The notes: a model not told the origin generated them from the sequence alone. A DNA stretch of 64,000 nt from Gammaproteobacteria bacterium (GCA_026984215.1 JALSSO010000081.1:16657-80656), one strand, 5' to 3'. Positions 4,620 to 55,471 are shown, counted from the stretch's first letter. Numbers and translations: made by a program.

Positions 4620-5285
4620 ATGAGCGAGCACCGCGTCGAACACCCCATCGGGAAACGGTTCCGGGGCTTCCTGCCGGTGGTGGTGGACGTGGAGACCGGC
4701 GGCTTCGACCCGAAGCGGGACGCGCTCCTGGAGATCGCCGCGGTACTGCTCCAGATGAATGAAAAGGGCTTTCTGGAGCCGGCCGAGACCATCGCCACCC
4801 AGGTGGTGCCCTTCGAGGGGGCGAATCTCGACGAGGCCTCCCTCAACGTCAACAAGATCGACCCGTTCCACCCCCTGCGCATCGCCGTGCCCGAACAGCA
4901 GGCCCTGGGTCACGTCTTCTCCAAGGTGCGCAAGGCGGTCAAGGCCAATCAGTGCACACGGGCCATCCTGGTGGGACACAACGCTGCCTTCGATCTGGCC
5001 TTCCTGAACGCGGCCGTGGAACGCACCGGCATCAAGCGTAACCCCTTTCACCCCTTCAGTGCGCTGGACACGGTCACCCTGGGTGCGGTCTGCTACGGGC
5101 AGACCGTGTTGTCACGCATCCTCGAGGCCGCCGGCATTCCTTTCGACAGCAGGGAGGCGCACTCGGCCGTGTACGACGCCCAGAAGACCGCGGAGCTGTT
5201 CTGCACCGTCGTCAACCGCTGGCATACGCTGTGCGACGCACCCGCCTGGCCGGAAGCCGGGGAGCAGGCCCAAGGTGCGGGCTGA
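4620..5285 (+). CDS. rnt: Ribonuclease T (DEDDh 3'-5' exoribonuclease)
   Basis: 221 aa. [12 protein letters not shown]...[14 protein letters not shown]...[14 protein letters not shown] exonuclease motifs typical of RNase T. Confidence 0.85.
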
Positions 5286-5350: not shown

Positions 5351-6307
5351 GTGGTCCTGGTGGATGATCTTTCCGTCCTGGTGGTGGACGACATGCAGTT
5401 CAGCCGCACGGTGGTGGCTACGGCCCTTCAGGGCGCCGGTTGCAGCGACGTGAGGCTGGCGGAGAACGCCGCCGAGGCGCTGGAAATGCTCGGCGAGCGC
5501 ACCGCGGACGTGGTGCTGGTCGACTGGGTGATGCCCGGCATGGATGGAATGGAGCTGCTGGAGGCGATCCGCCAGATGGACGATCGGACCCAGCGCTATA
5601 CCGCCGTGATCATGTTCACCGGCAAGGAGGGCGACGAGGCCATGATGGAGGCCTTCGCCCACGGCGTGGACGACTATCTGCGCAAGCCGTTCAACGACAC
5701 CGAGCTGGTCGCTCGCGTCTACGCCGCCGGGCGCATGGCCGCACTTCAGAACACCCTGCTCGAAACCGCCAATGCCATGGAGGCGGAAAACGAGCAGTTA
5801 CGCCGGATCAACGCCATCGACCCCATCACCCAGATGGGCAACCGCCGCTACGCGGTCGAGCGACTGGAGGTCCTCCTGCGCCAGGTCTCCACCCGCAACG
5901 GCGCCCTGAGCTTTTCCCTGGTGGACGTCGACGGGCTCAGGCAGATCAACGAGCGTTACGGTTACGAGGCCGGTGACGAAGTGCTCCGCGCCGTGGGCCG
6001 GCGGCTGCGCCGCTCGGTACGTCCGCTGGACGACGTGGCCCGCTGGGGCGGTGGATGTTTCGCTGTGTTGATGTACTACACCAGCGCACAACGCTCGCCC
6101 TCGGCGGCGGTGGCGCGCCTGCTCAACGTCGTCAACCGTCGCGGCATCGAGACCTCCAAGACCCGTTTGCCGGTAACCGTCTCCATCGGCTCGGTGAGCC
6201 TGGTCCACGGTGAGGCCCCGATCAGTGCCACGGTCCTCCTGGGCAAGGCCGAGGAGAACCTGATGCTGGCCAAGTCCCAGGGCCGCAACCGCATGATCCT
6301 CAACTGA
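5351..6307 (+). CDS. Response regulator: receiver domain plus a degenerate GGDEF domain (A-site GGGCF instead of GG[D/E]EF, RxxD I-site retained)
   Basis: The N-terminal REC domain carries the phospho-acceptor Asp in its expected context (VVLVDWVMPGMDGMELL). The GGDEF-family domain (INERYGYEAGDEVL ... VRPLDDVARWGGGCFAVLM) aligns to PleD CRYGGEEFVVIM. Confidence 0.75.
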   Translation: MVLVDDLSVLVVDDMQFSRTVVATALQGAGCSDVRLAENAAEALEMLGERTADVVLVDWVMPGMDGMELLEAIRQMDDRTQRYTAVIMFTGKEGDEAMMEAFAHGVDDYLRKPFNDTELVARVYAAGRMAALQNTLLETANAMEAENEQLRRINAIDPITQMGNRRYAVERLEVLLRQVSTRNGALSFSLVDVDGLRQINERYGYEAGDEVLRAVGRRLRRSVRPLDDVARWGGGCFAVLMYYTSAQRSPSAAVARLLNVVNRRGIETSKTRLPVTVSIGSVSLVHGEAPISATVLLGKAEENLMLAKSQGRNRMILN

Positions 6308-6319
6308 CCTTGCGGGATT

Positions 6320-6463
6320 TAGCAGGCCGTTGAAAAACGGCTGCGAAACCCGCCTGCGGCGTTGCGCGCTGCTCGCTCCCTCGCCTATCTCCTTGATATG
6401 TCTCGGTCGCTGCGCTGCGCGCGCCTTGCATCCGGGCTTCTCGCGACGTTTTTCAACACCCTG
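6320..6463 (+). repeat. MITE/REP-like mini inverted-repeat element, copy A. About 144 bp, with terminal inverted repeats GTTGAAAAACG...CGTTTTTCAAC. It abuts the dnaQ stop codon
   Basis: 143 of 144 nt identical to the reverse complement of 14213-14356. The 11-bp perfect terminal inverted repeats and internal dyad symmetry were seen directly in the sequence. Confidence 0.7.
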
Positions 6464-7204
6464 TTAGGTCGCCGGCCCGGACTCCAGCCTGCGCCACACA
6501 CACGCACCGCCGCTGGCCGTATCGATCTCGTCGAGTCGCGCCGCATGCGCCCGACGTTCGTCGTCGTCCGCCCGCACCACCCGCAGGCGCGGGCGGTCAG
6601 GCGGCAGCGGCCGGATCTGCTCCGAACCCGCCCCCAGCGGGTCACCCGCCAGGCTGAGCGCCACCTGTCCGCCGGTCATGGCGAGATAGACTTCGGCCAG
6701 GATGCGGGCGTCGAGTAGCGCGCCGTGCAGGTCCCGTTGGGAGTTGTCGACCCCGTAGCGCTTGCACAGGGCGTCCAGCGAGTTGCGCTGGCCCGGGTGC
6801 CGGCGCCGAGCCAGCGCCAGGGTGTCCACGATGGGACACAAGCGGTCGATGGGGGGGAGATCCCGTTCGAGTCGCGACAGCTCGGCGTTGATGAATCCCA
6901 CGTCGAAGGGGGCGTTGTGAATGATCAGCTCGGCCCCGTCCACGTAGTCCAGGAACTCGTCGACGATGTCGGCGAAACGCGGCTTGTCGGCCAGGAACGC
7001 ATTGCTGATCCCATGCACCGCCTCGGCGCCTTCTTCGATCTCCCGGTCGGGCCGCAAATAGTGGTGGAAATCACGACCGGTGACCCGCCGGTCCAACAGT
7101 TCCACACAGCCGATCTCGATGATTTGATGGCCTTGCTCCACTTCCAGGCCCGTGGTCTCGGTGTCCAGCACGATCTGTCTACGCATGCCTGCGTGCTCCT
7201 CCAC
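6464..7204 (-). CDS. dnaQ: DNA polymerase III epsilon subunit (3'-5' proofreading exonuclease)
   Basis: [10 protein letters not shown]...[12 protein letters not shown]...[14 protein letters not shown] exonuclease I-III motifs. Synteny with rnhA. The start may be the downstream Met at 7186. Confidence 0.85.
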
Positions 7205-8792: not shown

Positions 8793-9620
8793 ATGAGCGC
8801 AGCGGGCGCATTGACGGTCGCCGGCCGGACACATGCGGGGCAGGTACGGACACAGAACGAGGACTACATCGGTTACGACACCCGTATCGGCGCGGTGGTG
8901 CTGGCCGACGGCATGGGCGGGTACCGCGGGGGCGAGATCGCCAGTGCCATTGCGGTCAACACCATTCTGGACCACCTGCGACGAACGCTGCCCGGCGTGC
9001 GTCCCGGCGAGATCGATCCCGACACCGGCGTGACCCGACAGGCACTGGCGGCCCGCGAGGCCATCATCCGCGCCAACGAGACCATCTACAAGACATCCCG
9101 GAGCCAGGCCCAGTACCAGGGCATGGGCACCACCGTGGTGTTGGCCGTCTTTCACGGCAATCGCATCACCATCGGACACGTGGGCGATTCCCGAATCTAC
9201 CGGCTGCGCGACAACGAGCTCGACCAGGTGACCATCGATCACACCTTGCTCCAGGAGCTGGTGGACCGGGGTTTCTACAGTCCGGGCGAGGCGAAGGCTT
9301 CGCTGAACAAAAACCTGGTCACGCGGGCGCTGGGCATCGAACCCACGGTGGCCGTGGACATCATCGAAGACGTGGTCTTTCCCGACGACATCTTCCTGCT
9401 CTGCTCGGACGGCCTCAACGACATGGTCGACGACGAGGACATCCGCCTCGTGCTCCGCTCCTACGAGGAAGACCTGGACAAGGCCGCCGACGAGCTCATC
9501 AACCTGGCCAACGAGGCCGGGGGGCGGGACAACATCTCCGCCATCCTGGTGAAGGCGACGGGCGTACCCGCACAACCCAGCCGTTCCTGGGTGCGCCGTC
9601 TGGCCGACTGGTTCAACTGA
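8793..9620 (+). CDS. PP2C-family Ser/Thr protein phosphatase (Stp-like)
   Basis: RTHAGQVRTQNEDY...VLADGMGG...GTTVVLAVF...GDSRIYR...LCSDGLNDMV...GGRDNISAILV are the PP2C motifs I-XI. ATG at 8793. Confidence 0.85.
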   Translation: MSAAGALTVAGRTHAGQVRTQNEDYIGYDTRIGAVVLADGMGGYRGGEIASAIAVNTILDHLRRTLPGVRPGEIDPDTGVTRQALAAREAIIRANETIYKTSRSQAQYQGMGTTVVLAVFHGNRITIGHVGDSRIYRLRDNELDQVTIDHTLLQELVDRGFYSPGEAKASLNKNLVTRALGIEPTVAVDIIEDVVFPDDIFLLCSDGLNDMVDDEDIRLVLRSYEEDLDKAADELINLANEAGGRDNISAILVKATGVPAQPSRSWVRRLADWFN

Positions 9621-9653
9621 AGGAAATCAGAACACGACACACGATACAAGGTC

Positions 9654-10289
9654 ATGGCCAAACTCATCGTAGGGAAAAACGGGGACATCCTGAGCGAACA
9701 CGCCATCGGCAAGGAATGCATCACCATCGGGCGCAGGCCCGACAACGACATCGTGCTGGAGCATCCCGCCGTCTCCAGCCACCACGCCCAGGTCATCACC
9801 CTGCTCAACGACTCCTTCGTCGAGGACCTGGAAAGCACCAACGGTACGTTCGTCAATGGCCGGCTCGTGCGCAAACACGCCCTGCGCGATGGTGACACCA
9901 TCACCCTGGGCGAATACTGCATCCTGTATCGCAACGAGCTCGCACCCCGTTCCGGGGAGGAGATGGAACGCACGACGGTGCTCAAGCGCCCTTCCACGCC
10001 GGCAAGGCAGTCCGGCGCATCGCCCGCCACGCTACGCATCCTGAGCGGCGGCAACACGGGACGGGAGGTTCAGCTGACCAAGTCCGTGACCACGCTCGGC
10101 AAGCCCAGTGAGGCGGTGGCCGCCATCAGCCGCAAGACACACGGATACTTCATCATCGGCGTGGAGGGCGCCGGTGATCCCGAGCGGATGTCGGTCAACG
10201 GACGGGTCCTGGGTACGCAGGCCGTCCCCCTCGGTGACAACGACATCATCGAGATCGCAGGCGTGAAAATGCAGTTCAACCTCGGCTGA
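9654..10289 (+). CDS. FHA-domain protein with two FHA-like modules
   Basis: N-terminal FHA (ITIGRRPDNDIVLEHPAVSSHHAQV...STNGTFVNG) and a second C-terminal FHA-like region (ATLRILSGGNTGREVQLT...MSVNGRVLG...IIEIAGVKMQF). Lies immediately downstream of the PP2C gene. Confidence 0.8.
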   Translation: MAKLIVGKNGDILSEHAIGKECITIGRRPDNDIVLEHPAVSSHHAQVITLLNDSFVEDLESTNGTFVNGRLVRKHALRDGDTITLGEYCILYRNELAPRSGEEMERTTVLKRPSTPARQSGASPATLRILSGGNTGREVQLTKSVTTLGKPSEAVAAISRKTHGYFIIGVEGAGDPERMSVNGRVLGTQAVPLGDNDIIEIAGVKMQFNLG

Positions 10290-10303: not shown

Positions 10304-11347
10304 TCACAACCCGGCCACCAGTTCCCGCAGCCGGGCGGCGCCGGGGCGCTCCACCGCGCCCCGTTCCGTCACCAGCACGTCCACCAACTCCGCGGGCGTC
10401 ACGTCGAACACTGGATTCCGCGCGCCGGCGCCTTCGGCGGCCACCGGCCGCCCAGCGCAGCGCAGCACCTCCTCGGCCGGCCGCTCCTCCACGGGGATGT
10501 CCGCCCCGCGCGGGGTGGCCAGATCCACGGTGCTGGTAGGCGCCACCACCATGAAACGGACCCCGTGGTGGCGGGCCAGCACCGCGAGCCCATAGGTGCC
10601 GATCTTGTTGGCGACGTCACCGTTGGCCGCGATCCGGTCGGCACCGACGACCACCCATTGCACGACGCCCCGGTGCAGGAGGCTGGCCGCCGCGCCCTCG
10701 CAGATCAGCTCCACGGGGATGCCCTCGGCCACCAGCTCCCAGGCCGTCAGACGCGCGCCCTGCAACCAGGGGCGCGTCTCGCCGGCGAATACGGCCCCGA
10801 CGCGGCCCTGGGCCCAGCCGCTACGGATCACCCCGAGGGCCGTCCCGTAGCCGCCGGTGGCCAGCGCCCCCGTATTGCAATGGGTGAGCACGCCGCCTCC
10901 GTCCAGGTAGGCGGCGCCCAGATCCCCCATGCGGTGATTGGCCTCCACGTCCTCCCGGTGGATCCGACCGGCCTCCGCGAGCAGGGCCTCGCGCGGGTCG
11001 CCCCAGATCTCCTCCAGCACGCGGCGCATCCGGCGCACCGCCCAGGCGAGATTGACCGCCGTGGGCCGCGCCGCCTCCAGGCGTTCCAGCTCTCGGTCCA
11101 CACGCCCCCGCCACGCGCTGCCCGGGGCGTAATGGCGGATCACGGAAAGGGCCACCCCATAGGCCGCCGCGATGCCGATGGCCGGCGCACCGCGGACCAC
11201 CATGTCACCGATGGCGGTGGCCACCGCGTCACAGGATGTGCAGCGGATCCATTGCTCGGTCCGGGGCAGCAGGCGTTGGTCCAACAACTCCAGCGCTCCA
11301 CCGCTCCAGCGCAGCGCTCGAATGGTGTCGTGTGGGCGTGTGTCCAT
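10304..11347 (-). CDS. mtnA: S-methyl-5-thioribose-1-phosphate isomerase (methionine salvage)
   Basis: ORF 10304..11416(-). The internal start [28 protein letters not shown] is the typical MtnA N-terminus; eIF-2B-like fold motifs are present. ATG at 11347. Confidence 0.85.
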
Positions 11348-18652: not shown

Positions 18653-20290
18653 TCACCCGGCGCAGCAGGACAACTGGCCGACATCCTTGCGGAAGGTCTG
18701 CGCGCAGAGCTTGAGCCCCTCGACCAGGGTCAGGTAGGGAAAGAGCCGTCCGGCCAGCTCGTCCACGGTCATGCCGGCACCGATGGCCAGGGCCGCGCTC
18801 TGGATCACCTCCCCCGCACCGGCTGCCAGCACCTGAGCGCCGAGCAGCCGCCCGTGGCGCGCGTCGGCCACCAGCTTGATGAACCCGCGGGTGTCGAAGT
18901 TGGCCAGGGCCCGGGGAACCTGCCCCAGGTCCAGGATCCGGGCCTCCGCCTCCAGGCCCCGCTGGCGCGCCTGCGTCTCGGTCAGCCCCACGCTGGCCAC
19001 CGCCGGGTCCGTGAACGTCACGGTGGGCAGCACGGAGAGGTCCAGGCGCGCATCGCCGCCCGTGAGATTGACGGCGGCCCGCGTGCCCGCCGCGGCGGCC
19101 ACGTAGACGTATTGGGGCAGCTCGGTGCAGTCGCCGGCGGCGTAGATGTGAGAAACCGAGGTGCGCAGATGGTCATCGACGAGGATCGCACCCTGGACAT
19201 CGGTCTCGACACCGATGCGTTCCAGACCCAGCCCGGCGGTGTTGGGCGTGCGCCCGGTGGCCACCAGCAGCCGGTCGCCTTCGATCACACCGTGCCGGGT
19301 CTCCAGGACAAAACCGCCGACCCCGTGCCTGACGGCGGTGGGTACGGTGTCGCAAAGCACGCGGATCCCCTCGGCCTCGAAGGCGGCGCGCAGCCCCGCC
19401 CCCAGGGCTGGATCCTCTCGCGAGAGCAGGCGGCTGCGCGCGAGGATCGTCACCGCCGCGCCGAGCCGCCGGAAGGCCTGGCCCAGCTCCACGGCCACCA
19501 CCGAGCCGCCCAGAATCACCAAATGCTCCGGGACCGTCTCCGCCGCCAAGGCCTCGGTGGAGGTCCAGAACGGCGTGTCGGCGAGTCCCGGAATCTCAGG
19601 AACGGCCGGCCGCGCGCCGGTGGCGATCAGCACGCCCTCGGCTCGAACCTCGGTCTCGGTCCCGTCCGCGTGGCGCACGAGCAGCCTGTGGGGGGTCGCG
19701 AAACGAGCCCGGCCCCGCAGCAGCCGGATGGTCTCCCGACCCTCCAGGAGGGCCTCGTACTTGACGTGGCGCAGCTCGGCGACCCGCGCCTGCTGCTGGC
19801 GCAGCTGGGCGGCCCGGTCGACGGCGGGCACGCAATGGGCCAACCCTTCGAACGGATGCCGAGCCTGCAGATGGGCGATCTCCGCCAGGCGGATGAGAAT
19901 CTTCGAGGGCACACAACCCACGTTCACGCAGGTCCCGCCCAGCACCGGGGCGGCCTCCACGAGCGTTACCTGCGCGCCACGCGAGGCGGCCTCCAGCGCC
20001 GCCGCGAAGGCCGCCGAGCCACCGCCCACGATGGCGATCCGGGTCGCGGGGCCGCCGGCCATCGACTCGGACCGCGGGCGTTCCTCCAGCAGTCGCGCTC
20101 GGTAGCCGCTCTCCGCCACGGCTCGTACCAGGGCCTCCGGCGACACCCCCTGATCCACCTCCACCCGCGCCGTGGCGCTGGCGAAATCCACATGCGCCCG
20201 CACCCCCGGCACGGCGTTCAGGGCCGCCTCGACGCTGCGCGCGCAGTGCTCGCAGGTCATGCCCGTGATCCGCAGCGACCTGCGGTTCAT
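18653..20290 (-). CDS. merA: Mercuric reductase with an N-terminal HMA (NmerA) domain
   Basis: The start MNRRSLRITGMTCEHC (GMTCxxC heavy-metal-associated motif), the redox-active GTCVNVGCVPSK and the C-terminal vicinal cysteines ...QLSCCAG are all diagnostic of MerA. ATG at 20290 overlaps the merT stop. Confidence 0.9.
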   Translation of the reverse strand: MNRRSLRITGMTCEHCARSVEAALNAVPGVRAHVDFASATARVEVDQGVSPEALVRAVAESGYRARLLEERPRSESMAGGPATRIAIVGGGSAAFAAALEAASRGAQVTLVEAAPVLGGTCVNVGCVPSKILIRLAEIAHLQARHPFEGLAHCVPAVDRAAQLRQQQARVAELRHVKYEALLEGRETIRLLRGRARFATPHRLLVRHADGTETEVRAEGVLIATGARPAVPEIPGLADTPFWTSTEALAAETVPEHLVILGGSVVAVELGQAFRRLGAAVTILARSRLLSREDPALGAGLRAAFEAEGIRVLCDTVPTAVRHGVGGFVLETRHGVIEGDRLLVATGRTPNTAGLGLERIGVETDVQGAILVDDHLRTSVSHIYAAGDCTELPQYVYVAAAAGTRAAVNLTGGDARLDLSVLPTVTFTDPAVASVGLTETQARQRGLEAEARILDLGQVPRALANFDTRGFIKLVADARHGRLLGAQVLAAGAGEVIQSAALAIGAGMTVDELAGRLFPYLTLVEGLKLCAQTFRKDVGQLSCCAG

Positions 20291-20643
20291 GGCAGGAACA
20301 ACGTGCCGTAGTAAGGGAAGGCCACCAGCATCACAGCCACCAGCGCCACGCCCCAGAACACCCGACGCGCCCGGCGCCGGGCCGGCGAGACGGCGCATGC
20401 ACCCTGCGTCCCGCAAACGGCCGGCACCCGGTACAACCGCCAGCCGGCCAGCCCGAGCAGCGCCGCGGTGAGGCCGATGAACACCGGCCGGTACGGCGCC
20501 AGTGCCGTGACCGCGCTCATCCAGGCCCCGCCAAGCCCGAGCGTTGCAAGTACGAACGGCCCGAGGCAGCAGGCCGAGGCGCCCAAGGCGGTGAGCAGGG
20601 CGGCGGCCAGGCCAGGCGCGTTGCCAGGTTCTACATCCGGCAT
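20287..20643 (-). CDS. merT: Mercuric ion transport protein MerT
   Basis: 119 aa from MPDVEPGNAPGLAAALLTALGASACCLGPFVLATLGLGGAW. It has the TM1 CC pair and a second Cys pair (CGTQGAC), matching Tn501/Tn21 MerT topology. Confidence 0.85.
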   Translation of the reverse strand: MPDVEPGNAPGLAAALLTALGASACCLGPFVLATLGLGGAWMSAVTALAPYRPVFIGLTAALLGLAGWRLYRVPAVCGTQGACAVSPARRRARRVFWGVALVAVMLVAFPYYGTLFLP

Positions 20644-20694
20644 GAAGACAGCTCCGCACGCAAGTGCATGATCGAACCACACCGGATTGTGCGG

Positions 20695-20778: not shown

Positions 20779-22074
20779 TCAAAACGACAGGAACAGCCCG
20801 TAGCCCATGGTGAGCACGCCCAGCAGGACCAGACCGAGGAAGGCCGTGCGCTGGACGCGCCAACCACCGATGGTGACCGCGTAGATCGCCTTGAGGAAGT
20901 TGTTGCTGCCGGCGGCGATGAACAGGGCACCGGCCAGGCTGTGCATGCCCGCGGCGCGGTAGTGCCCGTTGAGCAGGGACAGCACGAAGGGGTCGATGTC
21001 CGTGAACCCCACCACGAAGGACAGGGCCTGGAGGCCGGCGTTGCCGAACCGGTGCAGCACCGCGTCGGTGAGCACCAGCATCACGATGAACAGCACTGCG
21101 AACAGGGCGGCGGTACCCAATTCCAGGGGGTTGTGCCCGGCGGCCTCGTCGCGCGTCTCCCGGGACGCCTGCCCCGCGCGGGCGCGTAACACGCCGTAAC
21201 CGATGGCCGCCAGGCCGAACATCGTGAACGGCACCGCCGTGGCGGGAAAGAAGTCGCGGTTCAACAGGAGCACCAGGGCGAGCAGGCGCAGATACATCAT
21301 CCCCGAGGCCGCGATGGTGGCGGCGGCCAGGGGAGCCCGCGCGCCGGGCTCCACGCGGCTGCGCCGGGCCAGCACGATGGTGGTGGCGGTGCTCGAATAC
21401 AGGCCGCCCAACAGACCCGTGACCAAGTAACCCTGCCGGGGAAACAGATAGCGCTGGAGGATGTATCCGAGATAGGAAATGCCCGAGATGGCCACCACCG
21501 CCACCCAGATCTTGTAGGGCGTGGCGGGCAGCCATTCGGCCACCGGCCGGTCGGGCATCAGGGGGAGGATCACCGCGGCCAGCAGGAGGAACTTGGCCAG
21601 GGTGACCAGCTCCCCCGGCGCGATGCGTTCGCTCAACCGATGCGTGAACGGCCGGGCGTTGAGCACGAACACCACCGCCACGAACAGCAACACGAGAAAC
21701 CACGGGGGCAGCAAGGTGGCGCTGGGACCGTAGGTATACACCACCAGAGCGATCAAAGGCTGCAGGATGCCCGTCTGCCCCGCACGGAGCTTCTGGTGAT
21801 AGAACAGCAAATAGAAGAGCACCACCGCGGCCATGCCCCCCAGATACAGCCGCCAGGCGGGGTCCAGGGCGTGGAGGACGAAGCCCAACAGGGCGATGAA
21901 GGTCAAGGTGCGTGCACTGCCGGCCTTGACGTGCGAGCCCTCGGCGTGATCGGCGTTCTTCGACAGCAGGTACTCGCGCATCTCCAGCCCGGTGAGAAAG
22001 CCGAACAGCCCCACCAGGAGGAAGCGCGCCCAGAGCGCGGAGAGCAATGGTGCGAACTGGGCGCCCTCAGCCAT
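20779..22074 (-). CDS. MgtC-N-terminal plus DUF4010-family integral membrane protein
   Basis: 431 aa, about 10 TM segments. Has the MgtC/SapB-like N-terminus followed by the DUF4010 architecture. Confidence 0.65.
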   Translation of the reverse strand: MAEGAQFAPLLSALWARFLLVGLFGFLTGLEMREYLLSKNADHAEGSHVKAGSARTLTFIALLGFVLHALDPAWRLYLGGMAAVVLFYLLFYHQKLRAGQTGILQPLIALVVYTYGPSATLLPPWFLVLLFVAVVFVLNARPFTHRLSERIAPGELVTLAKFLLLAAVILPLMPDRPVAEWLPATPYKIWVAVVAISGISYLGYILQRYLFPRQGYLVTGLLGGLYSSTATTIVLARRSRVEPGARAPLAAATIAASGMMYLRLLALVLLLNRDFFPATAVPFTMFGLAAIGYGVLRARAGQASRETRDEAAGHNPLELGTAALFAVLFIVMLVLTDAVLHRFGNAGLQALSFVVGFTDIDPFVLSLLNGHYRAAGMHSLAGALFIAAGSNNFLKAIYAVTIGGWRVQRTAFLGLVLLGVLTMGYGLFLSF

Positions 22075-22207: not shown

Positions 22208-22984
22208 TCACGGCCGCCCGCCTGCCCAGCCATCGCATCCGAAGAGACGACGCCGTCCCGCGCCGGCCAGGGCCAGCACCGCAAGCGCCCACACGATCGC
22301 CGGGCCGGAGGGCAGATCGAGGGCCGCGGACACCGCTAGACCCACCGCATAGCCCAGCGCCCCGATCAGGTACCCGCGGACCAGCGCCGTCGGCGGATCC
22401 AGCCCCCGCACCGCCAGTGCGGGTAGGATCAGGGTCGCGAATACGAGGTACACGCCCACGAGCTGGACCGAGGCGGTCACCGCCACGGCGAATACGAGAT
22501 AGAAGACCACCCCTGCCGGGCGCAGCGCGTGGACGAGGAGCAGCCCTGCGTACAGTACCGCCACCACGGCCAACTGGCGCCAACCCACCCACAGGATCTG
22601 TCCCGCCAGCAGGGCCTTGATCTGCTCCCCGCCATGGGGGTGATCGGCCACCGCGAGCAGGCTGGCGGTGACGGTGAGCACGAAGGCCACGCCGATGAGC
22701 GCCTCTTGGATCTGTGGCCAGCACCGCTCGAGTCCGTGGAGGATGGCGGCGCCGATCAACGCACTGGCCCCGGCGGCGAGCTGCACCTGCCAGTCCCCGC
22801 CGTGGAACCCCAATGCCTCGGCGGCGATGACGCCGAGACCGGCCATCTGGGCCGCGGCCAGGTCTCTGAAAATGATCCCGCGGGCGAGCACCTGGCGTCC
22901 CAGCGGTAGGTGCGTGGACAGCACCAGTAGTCCCGCCGCGAAGGCCGGGAGCAACACCCCCAGATCGAAGGCACCCCAGTTCAC
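22208..22984 (-). CDS. ABC-3 family metal (Zn/Mn/Fe) transporter permease (ZnuB/MntB-like)
   Basis: Membrane protein with the ABC-3 signature (...ALIGAAILHGLER...). GTG start at 22984 (VNWGAFDLGVLLP), overlapping the upstream SBP remnant. No cognate ATPase gene anywhere nearby. Confidence 0.7.
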   Translation of the reverse strand: MNWGAFDLGVLLPAFAAGLLVLSTHLPLGRQVLARGIIFRDLAAAQMAGLGVIAAEALGFHGGDWQVQLAAGASALIGAAILHGLERCWPQIQEALIGVAFVLTVTASLLAVADHPHGGEQIKALLAGQILWVGWRQLAVVAVLYAGLLLVHALRPAGVVFYLVFAVAVTASVQLVGVYLVFATLILPALAVRGLDPPTALVRGYLIGALGYAVGLAVSAALDLPSGPAIVWALAVLALAGAGRRRLFGCDGWAGGRP

Positions 22985-23698
22985 TGCAGGGCCTGGTGGA
23001 GCCGGGCCAGCGTCACATCGAACAATCCATAAAGGTCGTCCGCGCCCGGGGCCCCGCCCACGGTGAAGGGCAACACGGCCACGGGGATGCCGGTCTGCTC
23101 CGAGAGCCACTGTGCCGGCCGCAGGTCCATGTAGGCGGCCCGGAGGATCACGCGGGCGGGCTCGCGCGCCAGGCGCTGTTTCAATGCAGCCAGATGGCCG
23201 GGCGTGGGTGGGATTCCCGGCTTGGGCTCGAGCTCACCCACGCGCTTCAGGCCCAACCAGTCCTCGAGATACACCCACTGATCGTGGTGGACCACGATCG
23301 GCAGGCCACGCAGATCGGCCCCCTGGCGGCTCCAGCGCCCGGCGCCAGTCGGCCTCGAACCGTTTCCAGCGGGCCGCGTAGTCCTCGGCGTGTCCTGGAT
23401 CCAGTCGGCCAAGCCGCCGCGCCAACGCCTCGGCGATCTTCAACAGCCGTCGCGGATCGAGATGCACATGGGGATTGCCCTGTGGATGGATGTCTCCTTC
23501 GGCGCGGCTCAGACGCTTCGGGATCTCGAGCAGACGCACCTGCCGGGCCGCCAGGAAATGGCCCGGCGCGCCCGGCTGAACGGGGAAGACGCCGCGCAAC
23601 GACTGCGGCCCGATGAACGTGCTTTGTGGTATATCAACCCAAAAGGCGAGGCGGCGGCCGGCTTGCACGGCGCCAAACGGAGGGGAAGATGCCGACAA
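22981..23698 (-). pseudogene. Remnant of a TroA/ZnuA-family periplasmic metal-binding protein: 5'-truncated, with a +1 frameshift in a C5 homopolymer (23319-23323)
   Basis: Two overlapping frames (ORFs 23234..23698 and 22981..23412) together give GNPHVHLDP...YAARWKRFEADWRRALEPPG|ADLRGLPIVVHHDQWVYLEDWLGL...IPVAVLPFTVGG, which is a ZnuA-like sequence. Removing one C restores the frame. The N-terminal roughly 100 aa and the signal peptide are absent; the region is occupied by ppk2 on the other strand. Confidence 0.55.
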
Positions 23699-49312: not shown

Positions 49313-49940
49313 CTATGGGCGCCCGTCCAGCCACGCGAGCAGGCGGTCGCGCTCCCCGCAACCCAGAACACCCTTCGGCGAAGCTGCCAGTGCCCTGAGC
49401 AAGCGGGCCATTTCATCCGGTGAGGACAACGAGGCGTGCGGTCCTTGGCGGGGATCCAGCATGGCGATCAGAAACGCCATCATACCCCGGTCCGAGGCCA
49501 ACCCCCGCTCATCCACCACCACCAGGCCGGCGTGCTGCTCCAGCACGGTCTGCACGAACATGCCGGGTGCCTGGCGCCCTCGCGTTCCAGCAACTGGAGC
49601 ATCATCGAGGGCGCAGCTCGGCGAGCGCGATTTGACGACCATACCGCGCAGATCCGGATAACGCTCCAGAAAGCGCCGGGCGGCCGCCCGCAGGGCCGCG
49701 GTGTGATCCCGGTGGGGAGGATTCACGCCGCGGACACGGACGCCACCGATGCCACCCACCAGTTCGATGGGCTCACGGGGTACACCCAACCCGATCTCCA
49801 CCTCGGGACAAACCGGAACCAAACGGAACAAATGCCGCAGCAACTCCAGCACCGGCCGGGCCGGCCGCGCCGTCGCGTCATAGCGCACGGGGTGCCCAAG
49901 GAGGCAGGCGCTCACGGCGATCGGAAGCGCAGCCCCCTGA
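49313..49940 (-). CDS. DUF523 (TudS-like) plus DUF1722 two-domain protein
   Basis: ...ALPIAVSACLLGHPVRYDATA...LVPVCPEVEIGLGVPREPIEL matches the DUF523 N-terminus, and the C-terminal half resembles DUF1722. The start is unresolved (no in-frame ATG near the conserved N-terminus). It must lie below about 49955 because a terminator hairpin for the upstream gene sits at 49957-49981. Confidence 0.55.
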
Positions 49941-49956
49941 GGCCGGCAACGCAAAG

Positions 49957-49981
49957 AGCCGGACCCCGAAGGTCCGGCTCC
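49957..49981 (-). terminator. Intrinsic terminator of the EGKCG-repeat peptide gene (10-bp stem GAGCCGGACC/GGTCCGGCTC, loop CCGAA, T-rich tail on the minus strand)
   Basis: Perfect 10-bp GC-rich hairpin 33 bp after the 50014 stop, followed on the coding strand by tctttgcgtt. Confidence 0.55.
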
Positions 49982-50013
49982 CGGTTTACCTCCAGACGTG
50001 GTCGGGACGGACG

Positions 50014-50361
50014 TTACTTCTTCATGCCGCCGCACTTGCCCTCGCCGCACTTGCCCTCACCCTTCTTGTCAGGCTTGGCTGCCTTGTCCATGTTGCCGCA
50101 TTTGCCCTCGCCTTTCTTGTCGGACTTGGCCCCCTTGTCCATGTTGCCGCATTTGCCCTCGGCATCCTTCATCTGTTTTTCCATCATGCCGCCGCACTTG
50201 CCCTCGCCATCCTTGCCGGCCACCATGTAACCATCGGCCAGACGCGTCATGCCGAAGGGGTTTTCCGTGGCGCCAGCACCACCCATGGCAAGGGTGGAGG
50301 CCAGCGCGATGCCGGCGGCGGTGACCGTGGCGGTCTTGGCACAGGTCTTCTTACTCATCAT
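50014..50361 (-). CDS. Small secreted Cys/Gly/Lys/Met-rich repeat protein: Sec signal peptide followed by five EGKCG motifs inside about 17-aa tandem repeats (KKGEGKCGNMDKAAKPD...)
   Basis: MMSKKTCAKTATVTAAGIALASTLAMGGAGA|TENPF...GEGKCGGMMEKQMKDAEGKCGNMDKGAKSDKKGEGKCGNMDKAAKPDKKGEGKCGEGKCGGMKK. The DNA contains near-perfect 51-bp tandem repeats. Strong RBS ggagagaggag. Its own terminator lies downstream. Confidence 0.65.
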   Translation of the reverse strand: MMSKKTCAKTATVTAAGIALASTLAMGGAGATENPFGMTRLADGYMVAGKDGEGKCGGMMEKQMKDAEGKCGNMDKGAKSDKKGEGKCGNMDKAAKPDKKGEGKCGEGKCGGMKK

Positions 50362-50392
50362 CGATCTCCTCTCTCCGAGTCTGTACTGCGCG

Positions 50393-50482
50393 AACAGGCC
50401 GTCGAAAAACGGTCGCGAAAGCCGGTCGCTGCGTCGTGTCTCCGCGCGCCGGGCGCTCGAAACACTCGCGACGTTTTCAACC
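50393..50482 (+). repeat. Short diverged member of the MITE/REP-like family: the termini are conserved and the central roughly 50 bp are deleted
   Basis: aggccgtCgaaaaacggTCgcgaaaGcc ... ctcgcgacgttttcaac aligns to both ends of the 144-bp element. Sits between the DUF302 gene and the EGKCG peptide gene. Confidence 0.5.
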
Positions 50483-50557
50483 GCCTTCCAAGGCGCCCCA
50501 TCTCGGGGCGCACAACCAGGGTACGCACCCAGGGGTTGGTTGGATGCATCCAGCGGC

Positions 50558-51037
50558 TCAGGGCCCGGCGGTGGCTTCGTCGATCGCCGCCACGATGGCG
50601 TCCTCCACCTCGGCCAGCACCTTCCCCGCGGGGCTGGATCCAGCCACCACGGTGGGACGGACGAACAATACCGTAGTCCGCCCTCCCCTGTGAATCACCG
50701 TGACGCGCTGGGGACACAGGGCCAGCATGTCCGGGTCCTCGTTGCCCACGCGGTTGGCGTACCATCCGTTGCAGACCACCAGCACGCGAATGGCTTCCAG
50801 CCCGTTGCGGTTGTAGTCCTCGCCCCATTGGTCCCGAAACCGAGCGATGTTCGCTCCGATGTCGGCCTCGAACACCACCCACATGCGATGCGCCTCGAGC
50901 GCCTCGTGCAGGGCTTCGTACACTTCGTCCACGGGGGCCTGCACGCTTTTCTTGTAAAGCACCCCCGCGGCGTGCGCGGTGCCCGCGCTCAGCAGAATCG
51001 TCACCCAGGCGACCCGCAGCATCCAATGTGGTTTCAT
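50558..51037 (-). CDS. DUF302-domain protein with an N-terminal signal peptide
   Basis: Internal start MKPHWMLRVAWVTILLSAGTAHAAGVLYKK (ATG at 51037). ...VFEADIGANIARF... fits DUF302. The upstream extension of the long ORF is an artefact. Confidence 0.65.
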   Translation of the reverse strand: MKPHWMLRVAWVTILLSAGTAHAAGVLYKKSVQAPVDEVYEALHEALEAHRMWVVFEADIGANIARFRDQWGEDYNRNGLEAIRVLVVCNGWYANRVGNEDPDMLALCPQRVTVIHRGGRTTVLFVRPTVVAGSSPAGKVLAEVEDAIVAAIDEATAGP

Positions 51038-51165
51038 TGCGGTTGCTCCCGATTCGGTCTCGGAGTTGGTTATCCTAGCAGGGCCTCCAACACAGCGAGA
51101 GGCCGCACGCAGGATGCACGCGGCCGGGACCGAGGCATGCACGGATATGCAGCGGCATCGGGTAA

Positions 51166-53084
<1,919 letters not shown>

Positions 53085-53094
53085 TCGAGCACCC

Positions 53095-53517
53095 TCAGCC
53101 CACCAGGAGTTTGACGAGGGCCACCACCAGCGCCCCGGTTCCCAGCGTGATGCTGACCGACCAGCGCATGAAGCGATCCATGCGACGGTTGAGTTCCAGC
53201 AGTTGGGTTTCGATGGATTCAAAACGCTTGTCCCCCTGCTCGAAGCGCTTGTCGATTTGCTCGAAACGCTTCTCCACCTGCTCGAAACGCTTGTCGATTT
53301 GTTCGAAACGCTTCTCCACCTGCTCGAAACGCTTCTCCATGAGCCGGAAGCCCTGTTCCATGAGCTCCCGCTGGTGCTTGAGCTCCTCCTCCACCCGCAC
53401 CAGGCGCTCACGCAGCTCGAGCTCGTAGACGGCTGGCGGCTTGCCCAGCGACTGCTCGGCCAACCACTCGCCCAGGTGCGCCTTGATGAATTCGATGTCT
53501 TCCCGGCTGAGCGCCAC
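53095..53517 (-). CDS. Tail-anchored coiled-coil protein with six tandem heptads ([M/V/I/G][E/D]KRFE[Q/S]) and a C-terminal TM helix
   Basis: GTG start at 53517. ...MEKRFEQVEKRFEQIDKRFEQVEKRFEQIDKRFEQGDKRFESIETQL...RWSVSITLGTGALVVALVKLLVG. The DNA shows 42-bp direct repeats at 53200-53340. Confidence 0.55.
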   Translation of the reverse strand: MALSREDIEFIKAHLGEWLAEQSLGKPPAVYELELRERLVRVEEELKHQRELMEQGFRLMEKRFEQVEKRFEQIDKRFEQVEKRFEQIDKRFEQGDKRFESIETQLLELNRRMDRFMRWSVSITLGTGALVVALVKLLVG

Positions 53518-54121: not shown

Positions 54122-55471
54122 TCACCGCATGGTCACCAACTCTTCGGCGCTGGTGGGATGAATGGCCACGGTGTCGTCCAAATCGCGCTTGGTCGCCCCC
54201 ATGCGCAAGGCCACGGCGAAACCCTGCAGCATCTCGTCCACCCCCGGCCCGATGAGATGACAGCCGACCACCCGTTCCCTGGGCCCCACACAGACCAGCT
54301 TCATGGCCGTACGCGGTTTGCGCTCGGTCAGTGCGTGGTACATGGAAACGAAGCGCGTTTGGTACACCTTCACCGCCGGACCGTGCCGCTCCCGCGCTTC
54401 GGTTTCGCTGAGTCCCACGGTTCCCAACGGCGGATGGGAAAACACCACCGTGGGAATCCACTCGTAGTCCAAATGCCGTTGCGGTTGGCCGCCGAACAGG
54501 CGGTCGGCCAAGCGCCTGGCGGCCGCGATGGCCACCGGGGTGAGCTGCACGCCGCCCGTGACGTCGCCCACCGCATAGATCCCCGCTACGTTGGTATTCT
54601 GATACCGGTCGGTGACGATCTCGCCGCCGGGTCCGGTCTCGATTCCAACCGCCTCCAGGCCGAGGCCTTCGGTATGGGGACGTCGCCCCGTGGCCCAGAT
54701 CACCGCGTCCAGGTCCTCCGTGACGTGACCATGACCGCAGACCAGCGTCCTGCGGCCGTCGGGCTGGAGTTCCACGTGATCCACGCGCGTACCCGGAAAC
54801 AGGTCGATCCCCTGGTCCAGCATGGCCTCCATGAGCCCGTCGCGAAGCATGCCGTCGAAACGGCGCAGGAGCTGCTCGCCGCGCAGGAACAGGCTGACCT
54901 CGCTACCCAGCGCATGGAGCACGCCGACCAGTTCGGCGGCGATATAACCCGCTCCCACCACGGCCACCCGGCGCGGCAGGGCCTCGAGCTCGAAAAAGCC
55001 GTCGGACGTGATGCCCAGTTCCGCGCCGGGTACTTCGGGCACTTGCGCACGACTCCCCGTGGCGACGACCACATGATCCGCTTCCAGACGCCGCCGACCG
55101 ACTTGCAGGACATGCGCCTCCAGAAACCGCGCCTTGCCCTCGATGAGATCCACCTCGGCGTCGGCCAGATAATTGCGGTACCAGCTGTTGATGCCGGCGA
55201 TGTAACGCTCGCGCCGCTCCACCAGCGCCGCCCAGTCGAAATCCTCCACGGAGATCGAGAATCCATAGCCACGGGCATCGTGCAGGGCGTGGGCGAACTG
55301 CGCCGCATACCACATGATCTTCTTGGGCACGCAACCCCGGTTCACGCAGGTCCCGCCCAGGCGCCCCGCCTCCACCACGGCACAGCGAGCCCCGTGGGCC
55401 GCCGCGCGCTCCACCACCGAAAGTCCGCCCGAGCCGGCGCCGATGGCGATCAGATCGTAGTGTTCTGGCAT
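54122..55471 (-). CDS. gor: Glutathione-disulfide reductase
   Basis: Internal start [16 protein letters not shown] (ATG at 55471). The redox-active [13 protein letters not shown] and the C-terminal [12 protein letters not shown] are typical of Gor. Confidence 0.85.

Follow-up and report, generated by a model that had tools for sequence, protein, structure and literature searches.

A short gene in the 64-kb window (the whole stretch of DNA that was analysed) encodes a secreted protein in which EGKCG motifs are repeated and interspersed with Met- and Lys-rich linkers. A first-pass annotation had read the product as a Cys-repeat protein resembling metallophore or RiPP precursors of the MNIO-modified (bufferin-like) kind, and had added that no function had been characterised for this architecture. 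The locus raises the question to which family the protein belongs, and how a precursor of this kind might act at a place where the genes for its tailoring enzymes do not accompany it.

The hvfA-like gene and its product

The gene and the parts of the encoded precursor are located as follows.

50014..50361, minus strand: hvfA-like gene, an ORF for a 115-aa precursor, with its stop codon at 50014-50016
50269..50361, minus strand: Sec-type signal peptide, residues 1-31, MMSKKTCAKTATVTAAGIALASTLAMGGAGA followed by T (sequence inspection and alignment with family members)
50206..50268, minus strand: conserved N-box TENPFGMTRLADGYMVAGKDG, between signal peptide and core (alignments A1 and A4)
50017..50205, minus strand: core with five EGKCG motifs, Met/Lys/Asp-rich linkers and the C-terminal sequence EGKCGEGKCGGMKK (translation and NF050137)
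50044..50161, no strand assigned: 51-bp tandem repeat, equivalent at the protein level to the 17-aa unit EGKCGNMDK(G/A)AK(S/P)DKKG, two full copies and a partial one (TRF)

The full 115-aa translation consists of MMSKKTCAKTATVTAAGIALASTLAMGGAGA, TENPFGMTRLADGYMVAGKDG and EGKCGGMMEKQMKDAEGKCGNMDKGAKSDKKGEGKCGNMDKAAKPDKKGEGKCGEGKCGGMKK, in this order, and agrees in length and in the presence of a Sec signal peptide with what had been read from the DNA before. A 114-aa form is possible from the second ATG at 50358, and it is this form that occurs in public assemblies as protein P0001, with residue-for-residue identity. The GC3 of the ORF is 0.82, which is typical of genes in the window genome (the window has 68% G+C). 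By inspection, the signal peptide shows a K-rich n-region, a hydrophobic core and an AGA/T cleavage context, and all homologues have a signal peptide with which it can be aligned. Within the N-box that follows, N33, P34, F35, L40 and G43 are invariant and Y44 is conserved in at least 90% of the sequences of alignment A1 (18 sequences, numbered from the second Met); in alignment A4 (68 sequences) F35 is invariant and P34 and G43 are conserved in at least 90%. The mature part contains exactly five Cys, all of them inside an EGKCG motif as claimed earlier, and the sixth Cys of the precursor sits in the signal peptide. The last two of the five motifs are in tandem and make up the C-terminal end EGKCGEGKCGG, where the EGKCG at E101-G105 is invariant in 18/18 sequences of A1 and the final EGKCG at E106-G110 is at least 90% conserved. 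AlphaFold2 (68 sequences) returned a mean pLDDT of 48.7, no secondary structure and no confident fold, a prediction that fits a flexible peptide and is otherwise uninformative.

The two full 51-nt copies of the tandem repeat, at 50044-50094 and 50095-50145, are flanked on both sides by partial copies. Considering that the full copies are 86% identical and that TRF gives 89% (period 51, 2.3 copies), the 'near-perfect' repeat of the first-pass annotation was an overstatement. Its expectation that the copy number would vary was borne out by the comparison with relatives, as P0002 and P0003 are one 51-bp unit short (the number of 17-aa units differs).

Three further elements surround the gene.

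50366..50376, minus strand: Shine-Dalgarno-like sequence GGAGAGAGGAG, located 4 nt upstream of the first ATG and 7 nt upstream of the second (read from the sequence)
49948..49980, minus strand: candidate intrinsic terminator, a hairpin (GAGCCGGACC / GGUCCGGCUC) with a UUUGCGUU tail, 33 nt past the stop codon
50362..50557, no strand assigned: spacer of 196 bp between the DUF302 gene and the hvfA-like gene, with a REP/MITE-like element at about 50395-50480

The Shine-Dalgarno-like sequence upstream of the hvfA-like gene is strong. A promoter scan found no sigma-70-like promoter in the spacer upstream of the gene, and Rfam returned chance-level matches only across 49700-51300. The element in the spacer resembles a partial second copy at 6320-6455, and its description as a MITE copy is therefore supported in part. 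A terminator had also been ascribed to the gene: the G+C-rich hairpin stem at about 49956-49980 appears in both the MFE and the centroid folds and carries the UUUGCGUU tail. Owing to its weak U tract, however, the hairpin was passed over by a consensus terminator scan, and its fold energy is not unusual (z = -1.5).

Assignment to the HvfA/oxazolin family

The protein matched the NCBIfam model NF050137 ('HvfA family oxazolone/thioamide-modified RiPP metallophore', KCGExKCG_twice domain) over three stretches, with 34.9 bits against a cutoff of 19.5. The score with NF050188, the equivalog model for H. influenzae HvfA, was 26 bits against a cutoff of 95, and the window protein is therefore a family member and not an HvfA equivalog. 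In Pfam, no family was recovered with the 115-aa product at E<=1, DUF2282 (PF10048) included, on which ground an assignment to the bufferin Buf1 family was rejected. The pentapeptide MXKDX repeat family (TIGR02953) was likewise rejected, being absent from the NCBIfam scan at E<=1.

A homologue search in 5.8 billion proteins yielded 129 relatives, 120 of which were listed. All of these 120 share a three-part layout, composed of a signal peptide, an N-terminal box with the consensus (E/D)NPFxMxxLxxGYMVA, and EGKCG repeats that usually end in EGKCGEGKCGG. The NPF..L..GY box after the signal peptide is a feature of the family that we derived from this homologue set, and the window protein has it. 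One sequence that came into consideration as a second copy in the window genome, P0074, was rejected because it is K/F/I-rich and unlike a genome of 68% G+C. We consider it almost certain that the window gene encodes a precursor of the HvfA/oxazolin (Buf_EGKCG, captophorin) family. The earlier reading of the product as a secreted metallophore- or RiPP-precursor-like protein was thus of the right kind. The statement that the architecture lacked a characterised function does not hold: it is that of the HvfA/oxazolin family, for which there is an NCBIfam model of its own as well as published biochemistry (PMC11252979, PMC13097082, bioRxiv 10.64898/2026.06.05.730506). In fact, the literature already covers the family with its chemistry and its metal, stand-alone precursors are on record too, and the curated model names the gene.

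HvfA of H. influenzae is a 95-aa protein with a Sec signal and three AEGKCGEGKCG motifs, in which the MNIO HvfB modifies six Cys, and does so only with HvfC present (PMC11252979). Once modified, HvfA takes up about six Cu(I) at high affinity. Unmodified HvfA keeps 2-3 Cu(I), but it does not compete with BCA, which shows the binding to be weak; moreover, its Cys form disulfides (PMC11252979). The modification, originally described as oxazolone/thioamide, has been reassigned to 5-thiooxazole (bioRxiv 10.64898/2026.06.05.730506; PMC13097082), the signature of which is a change of -4 Da per Cys and an absorbance near 305 nm (PMC13097082, PMC11252979). Cys modification together with Cu(I) binding has been published only for HvfA, FonA and NgoA (PMC13097082, PMC11252979), and the class was given the name captophorins (PMC13097082). 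The specificity of FonBC was probed in single-position tests, in which A, R or T was tolerated at motif position 3 and only A was accepted in place of G at motif position 5, and a minimal single-repeat FonA substrate was not modified in vitro (PMC13097082). Under the name 'Buf_EGKCG/oxazolin' the family was described as comprising around 2,000 proteins with 17-residue repeats, and according to the legend of Figure 3 in that study some of the precursor genes stand alone, a minority arrangement that is thus recognised (PMC12452194). The family is Sec-exported (PMC11252979; PMC12452194), its experimental study dates from 2024, and the documented metal is Cu(I), whereas the first-pass annotation had thought of Hg(II) and other soft metals, bound through thiols and thioethers, as well.

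Tailoring genes in the window and in the family

The first-pass annotation had reported that no MNIO or DUF2063 gene lies within 10 kb of the peptide gene, and this absence could be extended to the complete 64-kb window. A tblastn search over the whole window, in which HvfB and HvfC were represented by three queries each and DoxX by one, gave nothing at E<1, and Pfam scans of around 40 selected long ORFs of the window revealed neither PF05114 (MNIO) nor PF09836/PF22106 (HvfC). The scanned ORFs represented only housekeeping genes, MerA, a glutathione reductase and decayed ABC fragments. Given that hvfB and hvfC are not found in the 64-kb window, the gene is a stand-alone precursor gene, and it is in this respect alone that it is unusual. 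The mercury and metal-transport genes that had been indicated earlier are present in the window.

18653-20680: MerA, confirmed in the window
22208-23412: decayed ABC-3/ZnuA fragments, confirmed in the window

The connection that had been drawn from the peptide to the mer gene is circumstantial, as mer is located about 30 kb away.

Elsewhere in the family the tailoring genes are commonly at hand. The genes of the distant homologues P0015 and P0017 directly precede genes with PF05114 and PF09836/PF22106 domains, with a DoxX gene beside P0017, and at the locus of P0078, where the gene table shows HvfC only, tblastn reveals an uncalled hvfB between hvfA and hvfC. We surveyed the loci in species-representative genomes using a 12-sequence alignment and the pattern EGKCGEGK, and recovered at least 80 loci with 37-56% identity, a set that leaves out the window's own genome and its sister genomes. 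Eight of these loci were cut off by contig ends, hence 72 were informative. Among the matches listed, hvfB was found by tblastn at a distance of at most 1 kb from hvfA in 63/72 informative loci, and in 62 of these 63 hvfC was there too. In 2/72 loci hvfB was located farther off within the locus, and in the remaining 7/72 the flanks proved free of hvfB over 5 kb or more in both directions, so that these represent stand-alone genes (both counts again among the matches listed).

A small clade with a separate precursor

The closest relatives of the window protein (P0002, P0003, P0004 and P0007) are 65-80% identical to it in alignment A1 and 59-68% identical by whole-gene tblastn. The HemB proteins of these relatives are 91-94% identical to that of the window, and the nearest named taxa, Ectothiorhodospira and Thioalkalivibrio, follow at about 80%; we infer that the genomes make up a small clade of uncultured gammaproteobacteria that is probably related to the Ectothiorhodospiraceae. 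The gene order of the clade is hemB (divergent), hvfA, DUF523, and in 3/4 related genomes dtd-hisB comes next. No hvfB, hvfC or DoxX was found in the available flanks (up to 10 kb) of the four related genomes. A scan of metagenome contigs with a clade-specific DNA pattern gave only one further copy of the P0004 genome.

The pairwise dN/dS of hvfA against the relatives is 0.15-0.36, at a dS of 0.65-0.74. The hvfA-like gene is therefore maintained by selection, and this selection is purifying within the clade. The window genome and all four relatives have kept both the N-box and the double motif at the end of the peptide. In P0004 and P0007 variants of the motif with the sequence EGTCA occur, and considering the fact that each of the two substitutions is tolerated by FonBC, this weakly suggests that the constraints of an MNIO may still act on the peptides of the clade. 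The genomes thus document a small clade whose precursor gene has stayed apart, in a stable manner, from the genes for tailoring.

The DUF302 and DUF523 neighbours

Two co-directional genes of other families flank the hvfA-like gene.

50558..51037, minus strand: DUF302 gene, 159 aa, with a signal-peptide-like N-terminus, upstream and co-directional (PF03625, 37.6 bits against a cutoff of 23)
49313..49954, minus strand: DUF523 / 2-thiouracil-desulfurase-like gene, downstream and co-directional (PF04463, 103 bits); the start is uncertain and the TTG at 49954 a guess

The first-pass annotation had presented the peptide gene and the DUF302 gene as a pair. The upstream, co-directional PF03625 gene is indeed there, but the adjacency is not conserved, as the relatives carry remnants or none. 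In the genome of P0007 (L092/L093) DUF302 is represented by a 33-aa C-terminal remnant with 79% identity and in that of P0004 (L003-L005/L096) by a degenerate 111-aa trace with 32% identity, and in the genome of P0002 (L095) the 295 bp between hemB and hvfA leave no room for the gene. Within the clade, DUF302 is intact in the window genome alone. Furthermore, neither a DUF302 nor a DUF523 neighbour was observed at 80 other HvfA loci, among the matches listed. Judging from these remnants, the DUF302-hvfA adjacency appears to be ancestral to the clade and in the course of being lost while hvfA persists, which argues against an obligate partnership; DUF302 is probably not a functional partner of hvfA.

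The DUF523 gene is the neighbour of hvfA that the clade conserves. It is positioned 41-96 bp 3' of hvfA in the related genomes and was seen after hvfA in L003, L092/L093 and L094; in P0002 the contig stops within the downstream gene, which was left without an assignment. Across full-length relatives DUF523 is 48-59% identical, compared to 79-93% for the neighbouring genes. It evolves as fast as hvfA, and both evolve faster than their neighbours. In genomes as closely related as these (HemB 91-94%), common descent is enough to account for the shared gene order.

Proposed mechanism and its alternatives

The reading that we favour, and to which we attach a reasonably good chance, is that of a stand-alone HvfA/oxazolin precursor which is modified in trans and sequesters Cu(I). 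The multinuclear non-haem iron oxidase HvfB (PF05114), together with its RRE-containing partner HvfC (PF09836/PF22106), would oxidise the five EGKCG Cys to 5-thiooxazoles, either ahead of Sec export or in the course of it, and the mature peptide, periplasmic or secreted, would sequester Cu(I) with high affinity. As hvfB and hvfC are not found in the 64-kb window, the modification would depend on enzymes acting in trans, with their genes in another part of the genome, which we hold to be roughly an even bet or somewhat better. Both the modification chemistry and the copper binding are attributed to the window peptide by analogy with the published family members. Signs that function has been retained are the purifying selection, the kept N-box and double motif, the tolerated EGTCA variants and the strong Shine-Dalgarno-like sequence. 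Against modification in trans speak the lack of hvfBC and DoxX in the window and in the flanks of the sister genomes, the unreached cutoff of NF050188 and the presence of mostly one EGKCG per 17 residues; the single-repeat FonA substrate that stayed unmodified in vitro and the AlphaFold pLDDT of 48.7 were also counted against it.

The main alternative, possible though rather unlikely, is that the peptide functions independently of an MNIO. In that case hvfBC would have been lost or would never have been linked, and the unmodified peptide would be a thiolate/thioether binder of Cu(I) or other soft metals, or a periplasmic thiol/disulfide buffer. The lack of hvfBC in the 64-kb window as well as in the flanks of four sister genomes is in line with such a role, like the fact that this arrangement has been stable over a dS of about 0.7 with the gene still under purifying selection, and so are the Met-rich linkers and the 2-3 Cu(I) that unmodified HvfA retains (PMC11252979). 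However, the latter binding is weak and the Cys of unmodified HvfA form disulfides (PMC11252979), the Met/Lys-rich linkers are equally common in operon-linked members of the family, and the retention of the N-box and of the EGKCG/EGTCA motif space preferred by MNIOs would be hard to explain without an enzyme. That an EGKCG lineage actually became MNIO-independent, its peptide being an unmodified thiolate/thioether metal or redox buffer or else being processed by something other than an MNIO, we regard as improbable.

The flanking genes could also be taken as evidence for a clade-specific unit, in which the periplasmic DUF302 protein would assist the peptide, or modification of Cys or sulfur would fall to the DUF523/TudS-like Fe-S protein in place of the usual enzymes. 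The short distance of 41-96 bp between hvfA and DUF523 in the related genomes (with the downstream gene of P0002 cut by a contig end), the pace at which both outrun their neighbours in evolution, and the position of DUF302 directly upstream in the window genome, a gene type that has been noted at a metal-resistance island (PMC7760498), may be quoted in its favour. Yet hvfA is intact in the two sister genomes with DUF302 remnants and in the third that has no room for the gene, a DUF302 or DUF523 neighbour occurs at 0/80 other HvfA loci among the matches listed, the order in five such closely related genomes (HemB 91-94%) is what descent predicts, and a hairpin separates hvfA from DUF523, all of which makes this unit very improbable. 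Finally, low complexity, a tandem DNA repeat, the lack of a Pfam match and the lack of a confident AlphaFold structure are what one might see in a decaying pseudogene or in a spurious ORF that arose from a slipping 51-bp repeat. Considering that the window genome and its four relatives all have an unbroken copy, that dN/dS is well below 1, and that the ORF combines a GC3 of 0.82 with a Shine-Dalgarno-like sequence and a score above the cutoff of a curated family model, this scarcely credible explanation is effectively refuted.

With this locus, a large and actively studied family of copper-sequestering RiPPs gains a further member of environmental origin. If hvfBC is present elsewhere in the genome, the gene encodes an ordinary distal precursor acting in trans; if hvfBC is absent from the genome, the clade would provide a natural test of the role of an unmodified EGKCG peptide. 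Neither outcome alters the current understanding of the family, and the current NCBI annotation rules would already name the gene.

Comparison with known systems

One parallel is methanobactin (MbnA/MbnBC), in which an MNIO likewise turns Cys residues of a ribosomal peptide into Cu(I) ligands. There, however, the leader peptide is not a Sec signal, the ligands are oxazolone/thioamide groups, the product serves copper acquisition and not sequestration, and the precursor is unrelated. The bufferins Buf1 (DUF2282) and Buf2 (Buf_6/12Cys) are Sec-exported, Cys-containing, MNIO-modified copper-binding RiPPs (PMC11626156), but they belong to another precursor family, with a different Cys context, and the window protein has no DUF2282 Pfam match.

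With the Buf_EGKCG/oxazolin group (PMC12452194) the window protein shares the 17-residue periodicity, the EGKCG motif, the Sec signal and the occurrence in Pseudomonadota, and the stand-alone organisation is among those listed for that group. In the main type described there, each 17-residue repeat carries two EGKCG and a beta-helix is predicted, whereas the repeats of the window protein mostly hold one motif and gave no confident AlphaFold fold. FonA (fontiphorin) of Fontimonas thermophila is encoded in a compact fonABC unit, unlike the window gene, as no such enzymes are present in the 64-kb window. Its core of EGKCG repeats is alike; an MNIO with its PME1 partner turns the Cys of FonA into 5-thiooxazole, which yields a copper-binding product (PMC13097082), and the motif positions of the window and sister peptides fall within the substitutions that FonBC tolerates (PMC13097082).

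A further system for comparison is HvfA (NTHI1441) of non-typeable Haemophilus influenzae (PMC11252979). It differs in genetic context, hvfA being part of an hvfA-hvfB-hvfC-DoxX operon and the window gene standing alone, and in the layout of the protein. HvfA is built from three regular AEGKCGEGKCG double motifs and has an N-terminal disulfide pair, whereas the window protein combines single motifs, separated by Met/Lys/Asp linkers, with one double motif and lacks the Cys pair in its N-terminal region. What the two have in common is a length of about 100 aa, the succession of Sec signal, N-terminal region and EGKCG repeats, the tandem EGKCGEGKCG and the same NCBIfam domain model, NF050137.

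Genes flanking hvfA

A DUF523/TudS-like gene lies directly 3' of hvfA throughout the clade, and upstream of hvfA remnants of a DUF302 gene were recovered from sister genomes:

49313-49954 (-), window: DUF523/TudS-like gene
10389-11048, L003: DUF523/TudS-like gene
653-1387, L093: DUF523/TudS-like gene
362-1027, L094: DUF523/TudS-like gene
4733-4831, L092: DUF302 remnant
56-154, L093: DUF302 remnant
9575-9865, L003: DUF302 remnant

The identity of the DUF523/TudS-like gene between genomes is only 48-59%, compared to 79-93% for the adjoining housekeeping genes; in the window its start codon is uncertain and the public gene call covers 82 aa only. The DUF302 remnant of L092/L093 is a C-terminal piece (33 aa, 79% identity) and that of L003 a trace of 111 aa (32% identity). 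These remnants represent differing stages of decay of one gene. Within the window, the spacer between the DUF302 gene and hvfA holds a REP/MITE-like intergenic element that occurs twice, with the ends CAGGCCGTyGAAAAACGG ... CTCGCGACGTTTT common to both copies:

50395-50480: REP/MITE-like copy in the spacer
6320-6455: second REP/MITE-like copy

More distant genes of the window

18653-20680 (-): MerA, mercuric reductase with HMA domain (780 bits to NF010311, whose cutoff is 600)
20779-22074: DUF4010 gene, adjoining merA
22208-23412 (-): ABC-3 permease and ZnuA, partial profile matches only
53095-53517 (-): 140-aa repeat protein
54122-55471 (-): glutathione reductase, adjoining the former (NF004776, 632 bits)

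The true start of MerA is probably internal to the 675-aa ORF. The gene lies around 30 kb from hvfA and the two are not linked. The first-pass annotation had reported a decayed metal ABC transporter, and this was borne out: the partial matches cover profile positions 170-253 of 258 (ABC-3 permease) and 153-261 of 263 (ZnuA), and the region looks like a Zn/Mn ABC transporter in decay. The 140-aa protein, which carries EKRFEQ(V/I)(E/D)KRFEQ repeats in tandem as well as a hydrophobic C-terminal tail, had no match in Pfam or NCBIfam, and neither its gene nor that of the glutathione reductase was present between ubiA and aroE in the gene tables of L003/L004 or L092, which are sister loci.

Other arrangements within the HvfA family

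6001-7093, L006: tandem pair of HvfA-type precursors

The two distinct precursors of L006 (127 and 152 aa) precede a single HvfB/HvfC pair; such an enzyme pair is evidently not restricted to one precursor. A partial cluster of a second kind is found in L050 and L079, where hvfA is followed by DoxX and neither hvfB nor hvfC occurs within 8 kb of hvfA. Finally, the homologs P0072, P0095 and P0109, in which EF-hand domains are embedded in EGKCG-repeat proteins, correspond to the type that PMC12452194 refers to as Buf_EGKC|EF-hand.
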